Source: an uncultured Opitutales bacterium
GTDB lineage: Bacteria > Verrucomicrobiota > Verrucomicrobiia > Opitutales > Intestinicryptomonadaceae
Reading direction: 5' to 3'
DNA: 32,000 nucleotides
NCBI GenBank assembly: GCA_934660865.1
Contig: CAKUIA010000014.1
Location: 37,354 to 69,353, forward strand
Positions 20,959 through 26,350 of this stretch are shown piece after piece; position 1 is the stretch's first letter; the number at the start of each line of letters is the position of its first letter. A program made the translations under genes and the position numbers. The notes under the pieces are model-generated. The model ran no database searches. It had not been told where the DNA came from and worked only from the letters and a program-made list of their open reading frames with translations.

Positions 20959-20974
20959 TGGCACAGATAATGCT
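20959..20974 (+). promoter_or_regulatory. Candidate sigma-54 (-24/-12) promoter of the dctPQM-eutBC operon
   Basis: TGGCACagataaTGCT compared with the consensus TGGCACG-N4-TTGCW. GG is at 20960-20961 and GC at 20972-20973, which is the canonical spacing. It lies 40 nt upstream of the ATG at 21014. Confidence 0.55.
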
Positions 20975-21013
20975 AGCACAAAAAGCATAGTTTAAAAACA
21001 GGCTATAAAAACT

Positions 21014-22105
21014 ATGGATACAACAAATACAAAAAAGGAAACCGCACCTGCCGTTTCGGCAGGACGTATGAACAAGAGGGGCTTTTTTAAGACTCTCGGT
21101 ATTGGAACTGCCGCCATTATGGGGGCTCCCTATGTAATGGGTGCGGCCAAAAAGCCCATAAAGTGGCGCATGCAAACGTATGCAAGCACGTCGTTGGGCG
21201 CGCATGTAATTAAACCGGCCGTAGACGCATTCAACAAAATCGCCAACGGCGAAATGAAAATAGAGTTGTATTACGCCGACCAGTTAGTGCCCACTAGCGA
21301 GTTGTTTAGCGCACTGCAACAAGGCACTTTAGACTGCGTACAAAGCGACGACGATTCCATGGGTTCCCCCGCAGACGTTGCTCCCTTTAGCGCATATTTC
21401 CCGCTGGCTACACGCTATTCGCTAGATGTTCCCGCCTTGTTCAACGAATTCGGTTTGGGCAAGCTTTGGGCGGAATCGTATAAAGAGGTTAAAAATGTAA
21501 CCTGGCTAAGCTCGGGCTCGTGGGACCCTTGCAACTTTATTACAAAAGACCCCATTCGCTCGCTTGCCGACATTAAGGGCAAAAAGCTTTATACTTTCCC
21601 GACGGCAGGCCGCTTTTTAACGCGCTTTGGCATAGTTCCGGTTACAATTCCCGTAGAAGACATTGAAATGGCAATGCGCACGGGCGAGCTAGACGGCGTT
21701 GTATGGTGCGGCATAACGGAGGCATACACGGTAGGGTGGTCGAACGCGACAAACTACTTTTTAACAAACAATATTTCGGGCGCTTGGATTGGCTCGTTTT
21801 TGGCGAACACAAAGTCGTGGGCAAAGGTGCCGCCGCACCTGCAAGAATTGTTTAAAGTTTGCATGGACTATTCGCACTACTACCGCCAATACTGGTATTG
21901 GGGCGGCGAGGCCAACCTGCGCGTAAACGGCGGCAAGCTAAAGCTTACAACCATTCCCGCCGAAGAATGGAAGCTTGTGGAAAGCGAAGCCGTAAAGTTT
22001 TGGGACGAGCTAATAGCAAAAGGCACTCCGCGCCAAAAACAGGTTGTAAAAATATTGCGCGACTACAACGCAATGATGGAAAAGGCGGGTTCTCCGTACA
22101 GATAA
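21014..22105 (+). CDS. dctP: TRAP transporter solute-binding protein (DctP family, Tat-like signal)
   Basis: 363 aa. The Tat-like signal MNKRGFFKTLGIGTAAIMGAPYVMGAA has KR in place of RR. The overall pattern resembles the DctP subfamily with Tat signals (COG4663-like, from memory). The true start may be M19. Confidence 0.8.
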   Translation: MDTTNTKKETAPAVSAGRMNKRGFFKTLGIGTAAIMGAPYVMGAAKKPIKWRMQTYASTSLGAHVIKPAVDAFNKIANGEMKIELYYADQLVPTSELFSALQQGTLDCVQSDDDSMGSPADVAPFSAYFPLATRYSLDVPALFNEFGLGKLWAESYKEVKNVTWLSSGSWDPCNFITKDPIRSLADIKGKKLYTFPTAGRFLTRFGIVPVTIPVEDIEMAMRTGELDGVVWCGITEAYTVGWSNATNYFLTNNISGAWIGSFLANTKSWAKVPPHLQELFKVCMDYSHYYRQYWYWGGEANLRVNGGKLKLTTIPAEEWKLVESEAVKFWDELIAKGTPRQKQVVKILRDYNAMMEKAGSPYR

Positions 22106-22127
22106 AATCCGCTTTATAAGGGCTATG

Positions 22128-24137: not shown

Positions 24138-24144
24138 TTTAAAA

Positions 24145-25539
24145 ATGAAAAAGTCTTGGAGCATTTGCGTTGGAAACAAAACCCATAATTTCCACTCTTT
24201 AAAGGAGCTAATGGCAAAGGCGTCGCCCCTGCGCTCGGGCGACGTGCTTGCGAAAGTTGCCGCCGCCGACTACGAAGAAAGGGTTGCAGCCCAAATGTGT
24301 CTGGCCGACGTTCCGCTTGAAATGTTCCTTACAGAGCCGTTAATTCCATACGAAAAAGACGAAATTACGCGCCTTATTTTAGACCGCCACAACAAAGAGG
24401 CTTTCAAGCCTATTTCGTCGTTTACCGTGGGCGAGTTTAGAGACTGGCTGCTGCGCTACGAAACCGACGGCAAGGTTTTAGAGGAAATCACTTGGGGGCT
24501 AACCCCCGAAATGGTTGCGGCAGTCTCTAAAATTATGGGCAACCAAGACTTGATTTTAGTGGCTTCCAAACGCCAGGTTATAACAAAGTTTAGGGACACC
24601 ATAGGCCTAAAGGGCAGGTTTTCGTCTAGGCTGCAGCCGAACGACCCTTCCGACAACCTAAAGGCCATTGCGGCCTCCATGCTAGACGGCCTGCTGTACG
24701 GCAGCGGCGACGCCGTAATAGGCATAAACCCCGCAACCGACAGCGTGCCGGCAATGACGGAAATCTTAAAGCTTATAGACGAGCTTGTGCACCGCTACGA
24801 AATTCCCACGCAATCGTGTGTGCTTTCGCATGTAACAAACGCGATTGCCGTTATGGAAAACGGCGGGCCCGTAGATTTGGTTTTTCAATCCATTGCGGGC
24901 ACCGAAATTGCAAACAAAAATTTCGGCATAAATTTGGGGATTTTAAAAGAGGCGCACGAGGCCGCATTGTCGCTGCACAGGGGCACCATTGGCGACAACG
25001 TAATGTATTTCGAAACGGGGCAGGGCTCGGCGCTGTCGGCCGAGGGCAACTGGAATGTAGACATGCAAACTTGCGAGGCCCGAGCCTATGCCGTGGCACG
25101 CGAATTTAGACCCTTGCTTGTAAATACGGTTGTAGGGTTTATAGGCCCCGAATATTTGTATAACGGCAAGCAAATAATAAGGGCTGGTTTGGAAGACCAC
25201 TTTTGCGGCAAACTGCTTGGCCTGCCTATGGGTTGCGATATTTGCTACACAAACCACGCCGAGGCCGACCAGGACGATATGGATACATTGCTTACGCTTT
25301 TGGCTGCGGCGGGCTTAACCTATGCAATGGGCATTCCCGGCTGCGACGACGTTATGCTGGGGTATCAAACAACGTCTTTTCACGACATTTTATATGCGCG
25401 CCAGCTGCTCGGGCTAAGGCCTGCGCCCGAGTTCGAGGCGTGGCTCGAAAAAATGAAAATCTTTAACAACAACAAGGTGTTGGCGTTAAACAATAACAAC
25501 AAACTGCTTGCAGACTATGGATTTACCGGCAATAGATAA
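24145..25539 (+). CDS. eutB: Ethanolamine ammonia-lyase large subunit
   Basis: It aligns by eye along its length with E. coli EutB: KASPLRSGDVLAKVAA, RLQPNDPSDN, GSGDAVIGINP, YFETGQGSALSA, NTVVGFIGPEYLYNGKQIIRAGLEDHF and MGCDICYTNHA. The start lies 7 nt after the dctM stop. Confidence 0.95.
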   Translation: MKKSWSICVGNKTHNFHSLKELMAKASPLRSGDVLAKVAAADYEERVAAQMCLADVPLEMFLTEPLIPYEKDEITRLILDRHNKEAFKPISSFTVGEFRDWLLRYETDGKVLEEITWGLTPEMVAAVSKIMGNQDLILVASKRQVITKFRDTIGLKGRFSSRLQPNDPSDNLKAIAASMLDGLLYGSGDAVIGINPATDSVPAMTEILKLIDELVHRYEIPTQSCVLSHVTNAIAVMENGGPVDLVFQSIAGTEIANKNFGINLGILKEAHEAALSLHRGTIGDNVMYFETGQGSALSAEGNWNVDMQTCEARAYAVAREFRPLLVNTVVGFIGPEYLYNGKQIIRAGLEDHFCGKLLGLPMGCDICYTNHAEADQDDMDTLLTLLAAAGLTYAMGIPGCDDVMLGYQTTSFHDILYARQLLGLRPAPEFEAWLEKMKIFNNNKVLALNNNNKLLADYGFTGNR

Positions 25540-26350
25540 AGCAAACGGCGAATATATGCTAAGGGCAAATTCGGTGTCGAAGCCCGACACTTGGTGTTTG
25601 CTTAGGAAATATACCACGGCAAGAATAGGCATTGGCAGAACGGGCGGCAGCCAGCGCACGGCGTCAATATTGGATTTTAAATTGGCGCACGCGCGCGCAA
25701 AAGACGCCGTTCTTGCAAAATTTTACCCCGAAAAAATTGCCGAACAACTAAGGGCTGCGGGCTTCGACAGCGTTGTTTTGCACACAAAAGTTTCGGACAA
25801 GCAAAGCTATTTGATGAACCCCGAACTTGGCCGCCAGTTAAGCGAAGATTCCGCAAATAAATTGGCAAAACTTGCAAAAGAGTGGGGCGAGCGCGATTTT
25901 ATGGTTGTCGTTTCCGACGGGCTTTCGGCATTGGCCGCAAACGAGCATGCGGTAGACACAATAAAGGCTTTGTTTGCGAATTTGCCCGAAGAAAACTGGT
26001 CGGCATATCCCATAATAATTGCGCCCTTTGCAAGGGTAAAAATTCAGGACGCCATAAACGAAATTTTGCACGCAAGGCACACTTTGGCACTTGTCGGCGA
26101 ACGCCCGGGACTGGGCTCGCCCGACAGCCTTAGCGCATATTTTACCTACAACACAAGGTGGGCAAGCGTGGAATCCGACCGAAACTGCATTTCAAATATC
26201 AGACCGCTTGGCTTGCCTATAGAAATCGCCACAAAAAAGCTTGCCTGGCTTTTAGAGGAGTCGCGCAAGCGCAAAATCAGCGGAACGGCGTTAAAAGATA
26301 CTTTCGATATTTCGGCTTTGCAAACAAAAGCGCAAAAGCCGATAGAGTGA
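25517..26350 (+). CDS. eutC: Ethanolamine ammonia-lyase small subunit
   Basis: The ATG at 25517 (or the TTG at 25508) overlaps the eutB 3' end. The motifs YTTARIGIGRTG, FMVVVSDGLSA and VGERPGLGSPDSLSAY are typical of EutC. Confidence 0.9.
   Translation: MDLPAIDKANGEYMLRANSVSKPDTWCLLRKYTTARIGIGRTGGSQRTASILDFKLAHARAKDAVLAKFYPEKIAEQLRAAGFDSVVLHTKVSDKQSYLMNPELGRQLSEDSANKLAKLAKEWGERDFMVVVSDGLSALAANEHAVDTIKALFANLPEENWSAYPIIIAPFARVKIQDAINEILHARHTLALVGERPGLGSPDSLSAYFTYNTRWASVESDRNCISNIRPLGLPIEIATKKLAWLLEESRKRKISGTALKDTFDISALQTKAQKPIE

Follow-up and report, generated by a model that had tools for sequence, protein, structure and literature searches.

Most transporters of the tripartite ATP-independent periplasmic (TRAP) type carry carboxylates (PMC4646407). 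What, then, would such a transporter import when its genes run directly into those for ethanolamine ammonia-lyase? The question is raised by a 32,000 nt stretch of DNA (the window) from an uncultured bacterium of the order Opitutales (Verrucomicrobiota), where five co-directional genes, dctP, dctQ, dctM, eutB and eutC, occupy positions 21014-26350 of the + strand. An earlier note on this DNA, made from its letters alone, had proposed a high-affinity TRAP importer of ethanolamine, or of a close precursor, coupled to the lyase. Our analysis indicates that the five genes very probably form a cassette for the scavenging of ethanolamine. The central idea, a TRAP system for ethanolamine, is already published, and the result is a sound annotation, not a discovery. 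In this respect the novelty implied by the earlier note was overstated, as work on ethanolamine TRAP transporters dates back to 2015, with a further characterisation in 2023.

Genes were identified by Pfam and NCBIfam profile scans of the window's long open reading frames (ORFs). The three components that define a TRAP transporter, DctP, DctQ and DctM, are all present, and their genes are adjacent and co-directional. The product of dctP is an orthologue of Csal_0678, a periplasmic binding protein of Chromohalobacter salexigens: it matched PDB entries 4UAB/4XF5 over the whole mature protein (phmmer, E 6e-142), and the runner-up among the TRAP binding proteins in the PDB reached only E 1e-16. 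It bears a Tat-like signal (KRGFF), and its closest named homologues come from Opitutales, Opitutaceae, Puniceicoccales and Geminisphaera.

The ligand of Csal_0678 is known from its structure. Entry 4UAB holds this protein with ethanolamine bound, at 1.4 Å; the amine and the hydroxyl group are both coordinated by Glu220, which acts as a platform, and aromatic side chains surround the carbon atoms (PMC12410723). Csal_0678 has no equivalent of the carboxylate-binding Arg147, and ethanolamine is its atypical ligand (Fischer et al., PMC4646407), which a review of TRAP transporters termed 'a particular surprise' among their substrates (PMC5812351). The remark in the earlier note that TRAP binding proteins had been crystallised with ethanolamine is thus verified by Csal_0678 (PMC4646407, PMC5812351, PMC12410723). 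For EtoX, the Phaeobacter homologue, the Kd for ethanolamine is 7.9 ± 1.9 μM, and phosphoethanolamine, phosphocholine, G1P and G3P are not bound (PMC10132767). Westermann et al. delimit the family by a profile hidden Markov model (HMM) E-value of 1e-60 and by clustering with Csal_0678 and MED193_10041 (PMC10132767); the dctP product falls within the Csal_0678/EtoX family as judged by phmmer against the PDB (not by the HMM of those authors).

The acidic platform residue appears to be retained as well. The Glu in the GITEDY segment of Csal_0678 aligns with E236 of the dctP product (GITEAY), and this residue is invariant in 16 diverse family members. Glu220 was mapped to E236 through a +3 offset between PDB chain and native numbering, which we infer from an alignment that starts at chain residue 24, taken as the first residue after the expression tag. 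Because each of the four Glu residues of Csal_0678 that could be selected as Glu220 under plausible offsets aligns with a Glu of the window protein (E215, E218, E225 and E236), the acidic platform residue is predicted to be conserved whichever offset applies. In the segment that presumably corresponds to the surroundings of SiaP Arg147, the window protein reads KGKKLYTFPTAGRF and Csal_0678 reads GKRVFTFPTAGRF, and the former has no Arg that is absent from the latter. On these sequence comparisons ethanolamine is by far the best-supported substrate of the dctP product.

Ethanolamine is thus the part of the earlier proposal that stands, supported by the match to Csal_0678, the conserved Glu and the recurrence of the linkage described below; the part concerning a close precursor loses ground, as EtoX rejects phosphoethanolamine. 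'High-affinity' can be kept in a relative sense only, the Kd of EtoX being the sole one found. Members of the family go by the names 'TRAP-type mannitol/chloroaromatic compound transport system' or 'C4-dicarboxylate ABC transporter' in source databases, which are probably misannotations given the ethanolamine-bound structure.

The two genes downstream of the transporter encode a complete ethanolamine ammonia-lyase. Both subunits are full length and exceed their NCBIfam cut-offs (EutB, 705 bits against 554; EutC, 277 bits against 230 for the equivalog model). EutB matched its E. coli counterpart (PDB 3ABO_A) over the whole length with E 3e-142, and EutC matched E. coli EutC (PDB 3ANY_B) with E 8e-36. 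In a HMMER alignment to 3ABO_A, all five positions aligned with R160, Q162, N193, E287 and D362 of E. coli EutB are identical; these residues are reported to be the substrate contacts of that enzyme (Shibata et al. 2010). EutC is different at its N-terminus, where residue 18 aligns with residue 59 of the 295-aa E. coli chain, and it appears to lack an extension of about 40 residues. In enteric bacteria this extension of EutC carries the peptide that targets the protein to the microcompartment. Pfam scans of the long ORFs of the 32-kb window yielded no match to the shell proteins EutS/M/N/L/K, to EutA, EutT, EutE or EutR, or to the EutH and amino-acid-permease (Eat) families, and revealed no regulator, sigma-54 activator or acetaldehyde dehydrogenase. 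Since the EutC extension is apparently missing and the window holds no shell genes, the sequence indicates that EutBC would be a free cytosolic lyase, as in the 'short' eut operons, which have the lyase without a microcompartment (PMC5821096).

If the transporter serves the lyase, the two should stay together in other genomes. One GTDB genome per species was scanned with an alignment of family members, and neighbourhoods were mapped by tblastn for the best 80 of at least 589 confirmed loci. Among these 80, the TRAP genes are adjoined by at least one gene for gamma-glutamylation in 58 and by all three in 46. The three genes, identified with Pfam in a Halomonadaceae locus (L053), encode a glutamine synthetase (GS)-like protein, an aldehyde dehydrogenase and an iron-containing alcohol dehydrogenase (Fe-ADH), and this pathway matches one that Westermann et al. 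credit to Vetting et al. (PMC10132767). A eutB gene adjoins the TRAP genes in 5 of the 80 loci, none has eutB together with gamma-glutamylation genes, and 17, some of them on short contigs, have neither partner.

The five eutB-linked loci of the survey belong to a member of the Opitutaceae (L001), to two Verrucomicrobiota metagenome-assembled genomes (MAGs) labelled 'Akkermansia sp.' (L002 and L005), to a member of the Zoogloeaceae (L004) and to Hydrogenophaga (L008); the order is dctPQM-eutBC except in Hydrogenophaga, where it is eutBC-dctPQM. Look-ups of single homologues added five loci with the order dctPQM-eutBC: L081, which has a binding protein 92% identical to that of the window and pduO directly upstream, the Opitutales MAG GCA_044433115.1 (L082), Geminisphaera colitermitum (L084), Luteolibacter sp. 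AS25 (L085) and Ca. Accumulibacter (L086). The five-gene linkage is therefore conserved in at least ten other loci from Verrucomicrobiota and Betaproteobacteria. Because the flanking genes are unrelated at each locus (L081 shares pduO), dctPQM-eutBC behaves as a cassette. The earlier note had let its case depend on the presence of this linkage in related genomes, and it was found in related and unrelated ones alike. Within the ethanolamine-TRAP family as sampled, linkage to eutBC is a conserved but minority arrangement.

As to gene order, QMP occurs mostly with gamma-glutamylation genes, and PQM in all eutBC-linked loci. Neighbour-joining places the eutBC-linked binding proteins in one clade with that of L048 (Methylacidiphilales, with GS-like genes) at a bootstrap of 64/100, and it unites the binding proteins of the window, L081 and L082 at 100/100. 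Strict monophyly of the eutBC-linked proteins was rejected, with a bootstrap of 2/100; the clade holds only when L048 is included. The cassette of L082 also shows a variation of its own, in that a single eutC follows a tandem pair of eutB genes at 13093-15856; the products of the pair, of 462 and 464 aa, share 70% identity.

The features of the locus are collected in Table 1. The layout given in the earlier note agrees with our results in most respects: profile matches placed all five genes on the + strand in the order described, a terminator precedes the unit and a convergent gene follows it, our Pfam scans confirmed the absence of EutH and Eat-type permeases from the window, and base-by-base reading returned the same gaps of 1 nt between dctQ and dctM (TAA 22808-22810, ATG 22812) and 7 nt between dctM and eutB (TAG 24135-24137, ATG 24145), as well as an overlap of eutB with eutC. 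The transporter had also been called "fused" into the operon, which is incorrect, as the genes are adjacent and not fused. The overlap of eutB and eutC amounts to 32 nt from TTG 25508 or 23 nt from ATG 25517, of which the ATG is the more likely start. The ORF of dctQ opens at TTG 22199; translation probably begins at ATG 22214, because this start gives a protein of 198 aa, as in L081 and L082, and it leaves a gap of 108 nt between dctP and dctQ.

Table 1. Features of the dctPQM-eutBC locus and its boundaries, in window coordinates.
Feature	Position	Strand	Evidence or remark
pduO, PduO-type ATP:cob(I)alamin adenosyltransferase	20244-20762	+	Pfam Cob_adeno_trans E 3e-40; NCBIfam PduO_Nterm
Intrinsic terminator 3′ of pduO, upstream boundary of the unit	20803-20830	+	11-bp stem and T-run
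Three clustered TACAAATTTGTA-like palindromic sites	20837-20881	n/a	Candidate sigma-54 activator sites (upstream activating sequences, UAS)
Sigma-54-type -24/-12 element TGGCACagataaTGCT	20959-20974	+	Motif match, conserved
dctP/etoX, periplasmic TRAP binding protein	21014-22105	+	Pfam DctP E 1e-19; NCBIfam TRAP_S1
GC-rich hairpin in the dctP-dctQ gap	22128-22171	+	Folding, z = -4.0 for the gap
dctQ, small TRAP membrane subunit, 198 aa	22214-22810	+	Pfam DctQ E 3e-22
dctM, large TRAP permease subunit, 441 aa	22812-24137	+	Pfam DctM E 4e-69, 413/413 profile positions
eutB, ethanolamine ammonia-lyase large subunit	24145-25539	+	Pfam EutB E 2e-213
eutC, ethanolamine ammonia-lyase small subunit	25517-26350	+	Pfam EutC E 1.5e-78
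Convergent Wzy_C-like gene, downstream boundary	26389-27702	-	Pfam

Upstream of the cassette lies pduO, which is a separate transcription unit; the terminator behind it has a folding energy of -16.1 kcal/mol (z = -4.75). Its product is likely to supply adenosylcobalamin for EutBC. In L081 the gene (71% identity) is kept directly upstream of dctP although the other flanks differ.

A candidate promoter for the cassette precedes the dctP ATG by 55 nt. The sequence TGGCACagataaTGCT agrees with the sigma-54 consensus TGGCAC-N5-TTGCW, which is of the form GG-N10-GC, at 10 of its 11 specified positions, and it is the sole match to TGGCAC-N6-TGCW in the window, where 0.09 would be expected by chance. 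Its first base, 20959, is also the start coordinate that the earlier note had given to the unit. The motif is conserved: elements of this type precede dctP in L081 and in L082, where the match is perfect, and matches of at least 9/11 precede it in L001, L008, L084, L085 and L086. The background frequency of matches this good is 0.045 per 300 nt per strand. Counting the window as one, 8 of the 11 eutBC-linked loci thus have a sigma-54-type match upstream of dctP. Expression most likely starts at this predicted promoter.

Three of the five window-wide matches to TACAAATTTGTA (up to two mismatches allowed) fall within 45 nt, in a cluster that contains the inverted repeats I1 and I2 and lies 80-120 nt upstream of the sigma-54-type element. 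L081 has perfect 11-nt inverted arms at 9832-9871 as a counterpart, and L082 has TACAAATTTGTA at about 9775. Palindromes at such a distance upstream are the usual layout for an enhancer-binding protein, and those of the window are candidate binding sites for a sigma-54 activator. We saw no gene for a local regulator among the window's long ORFs, nor adjoining the cassette in L082, L084, L085 or L086. An NtrC-type activator encoded 4 kb downstream in L081 was considered as regulator of the operon and set aside, since the link is unsupported. The promoter arrangement would also fit nitrogen control. Across the whole window no match to an adenosylcobalamin riboswitch or other known RNA was obtained from Rfam at gathering thresholds.

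The gap between dctP and dctQ folds at -41.4 kcal/mol, with a strong hairpin on which the earlier note is silent; it has an 11-bp GC stem followed by a T-run, and hairpins of unrelated sequence stand at the matching position in L081 and L082. A hairpin after the gene for the binding protein is a common route to an excess of that protein in binding-protein-dependent transporters. The hairpin of the window is probably an attenuator or an mRNA stabiliser that would raise the ratio of binding protein to permease, within a transcript that we infer to extend from dctP to eutC.

These observations are consistent with the following sequence of events. Ethanolamine would first be captured in the periplasm by a binding protein of the Csal_0678/EtoX family, through aromatic side chains and an acidic platform residue and not through the carboxylate-binding Arg typical of TRAP systems, and would then be handed to the DctQM membrane unit for import driven by an ion gradient. 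In the cytoplasm, the adenosylcobalamin-dependent EutBC, free of any microcompartment, would split ethanolamine into ammonia and acetaldehyde, with cofactor supplied by the neighbouring PduO-type adenosyltransferase. Transcription would proceed from the sigma-54-type promoter upstream of dctP, activated from the palindromes farther upstream by an enhancer-binding protein encoded outside the window, and the hairpin after dctP would probably yield more binding protein than permease. Ethanolamine would most plausibly serve the organism as a nitrogen source.

Could the transporter carry something else? It might instead import a different small 2-amino alcohol, such as 2-amino-1-propanol or serinol, which EutBC would then deaminate. 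Ethanolamine ammonia-lyase does turn over 2-aminopropanols, slowly, and the second PDB entry for Csal_0678, 4XF5, holds a different ligand, presumably (S)-2-amino-1-propanol, which suggests that the pocket tolerates small amino alcohols. We nevertheless consider this substrate unlikely: ethanolamine is the reported ligand of Csal_0678 and of EtoX, EutB matches the ethanolamine-specific E. coli enzyme (E 3e-142) and has the same residues where the substrate contacts align, and, as the head group of phosphatidylethanolamine, ethanolamine is by far the commoner compound in nature. The close precursor that the earlier note allowed for could be phosphoethanolamine or glycerophosphoethanolamine, hydrolysed in the cytoplasm ahead of EutBC, and phosphatase data for the organism do not speak against it. 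Such import is rendered very improbable by the ligand range of EtoX, which binds neither phosphoethanolamine, phosphocholine, G1P nor G3P (PMC10132767), by the E 6e-142 match to ethanolamine-bound Csal_0678 with its acidic platform residue conserved, and by a cassette that contains no phosphatase or phosphodiesterase gene in the window, L081, L082, L084, L085 or L086.

It is just as improbable that the adjacency is incidental, with a TRAP system devoted to an unrelated carboxylate and eutBC expressed independently of it. Carboxylates are what most TRAP systems carry (PMC4646407), a 108-nt gap with a hairpin parts dctP from dctQ, and most loci of the ethanolamine-TRAP family do not adjoin eutBC. 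Yet only 7 nt separate dctM from eutB, the five genes are kept together, with flanks that are unrelated, in at least ten further loci of two phyla, and the binding protein belongs to an ethanolamine-binding family whose members outside the eutBC-linked loci adjoin another pathway for ethanolamine.

Several points weigh against the assignment of the locus to ethanolamine scavenging. The importer is a predicted one, and its substrate assignment is supported by homology; the mapping of Glu220 to E236 hangs on a numbering offset that was itself deduced from an alignment, and specificity may reach other small amino alcohols if the 4XF5 ligand is (S)-2-amino-1-propanol. The bootstrap of 64/100 for the neighbour-joining clade of eutBC-linked binding proteins is only moderate. 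The pathway relies on genes elsewhere in the genome, as acetaldehyde dehydrogenase, the EutA reactivase and the sigma-54 activator are not in the window. The hairpin and T-run in the dctP-dctQ gap could terminate some transcripts, so that read-through into dctQM-eutBC is not guaranteed, and the same gap contains a weak sigma-70-like match. We gave this match no weight because promoter-like matches in the operon region are as frequent as in shuffled sequence (9 found, 9.0 expected); scans for sigma-70 promoters and terminators inside the operon were uninformative, with counts at the shuffle expectation.

With ethanolamine as the substrate, the locus can be compared with known systems. The Csal_0678-0680 TRAP system of C. 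salexigens resembles it in the match of the binding protein, the acidic platform residue, the Tat-type signal and the sizes of the membrane subunits, listed as 198 aa for Q and 440 aa for M (198 and 441 aa in the window). The system is credited to Vetting et al. 2015, Biochemistry 54:909. Two differences are apparent: the order of the transporter genes is PQM in the window and QMP in most gammaproteobacterial and alphaproteobacterial loci, and the catabolic partner is EutBC in place of the GS-like protein, aldehyde dehydrogenase and Fe-ADH found in the Halomonadaceae locus L053. The EtoXVW system of Phaeobacter sp. MED193, which serves to scavenge the head group of phospholipids (Westermann et al. 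2023, PMC10132767), is of the same TRAP family, but its operon carries the gamma-glutamylation enzymes and an RpiR regulator (PMC10132767), whereas in the window the TRAP genes are paired with eutBC, a sigma-54-type promoter precedes them and no regulator is encoded locally.

Among eut operons, the short PA4022-eat-eutBC operon of Pseudomonas aeruginosa, which is dependent on sigma-54 and EatR (PMC5821096), shares with the window a microcompartment-free eutBC, a dedicated importer and a -24/-12 sigma-54 promoter, the last being a predicted one in our case. Its importer is the secondary permease Eat and not a binding-protein-dependent TRAP system, and it includes an aldehyde dehydrogenase gene and adjoins the gene for its activator EatR, neither of which is present in the window. 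The long operon of Salmonella and E. coli (eutS...eutR, with EutH and a microcompartment shell) encodes homologous EutB and EutC proteins, but its shell proteins, EutH, EutA, EutT, EutE and EutR have no counterparts in the window, where PduO stands in place of EutT. Judged by its gene content, the operon of the window is not a member of the microcompartment type. By analogy it would work like a short eut operon, with TRAP in the role of Eat and PduO in that of EutT.

The new elements are modest, namely the pairing with EutBC, its spread over Verrucomicrobiota and Betaproteobacteria, the conserved sigma-54-type promoter with its palindromes, and the hairpin after dctP. No new principle is involved, as a TRAP transporter whose substrate is cationic and not a carboxylate has been in print since 2015. 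We found no description of a TRAP-eutBC operon in the searchable literature; what turned up instead was work on ectoine in Halomonas and on ectoine catabolism, a field in which eutB is the name of another gene. Vetting et al. 2015 may already mention eutBC neighbourhoods. It is conceivable, though we hold it to be somewhat less than an even chance, that the eutBC-linked TRAP systems are a distinct undescribed branch, a compact, sigma-54-controlled, microcompartment-free cassette that has passed between Betaproteobacteria and two orders of Verrucomicrobiota, Opitutales and Verrucomicrobiales.

If the assignment is true, binding-protein-dependent scavenging of ethanolamine would be coupled directly to a B12-dependent lyase, and ethanolamine-specific TRAP importers would feed two mutually exclusive routes, gamma-glutamylation or EutBC. 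This uptake route is missing from current reviews; the TRAP route is under-recognised in the major one on ethanolamine utilisation, by Kaval and Garsin, where EutH and Eat are the only importers named (PMC5821096). A transporter labelled 'mannitol/chloroaromatic' or 'C4-dicarboxylate' TRAP in databases would also gain a confident functional annotation. Two carriers of the cassette, Luteolibacter sp. AS25 and Geminisphaera colitermitum, are cultured, so that the cassette, and the sigma-54 control predicted for it, can be put to a direct test.

The genes around the cassette (1-20127 and 26389-31822) include none related to ethanolamine use. Four ORFs on the downstream side, at 27713-28336, 28572-29951 (with a trace of YD repeats), 29963-30790 and 30794-31822, are without a Pfam match. 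The two flanking regions encode glycoside hydrolases of families GH43, GH97 and GH78, glycosyltransferases of the GT8/GT2 families, a FadL-type outer-membrane protein, and a P-type ATPase with HMA_2 partners.

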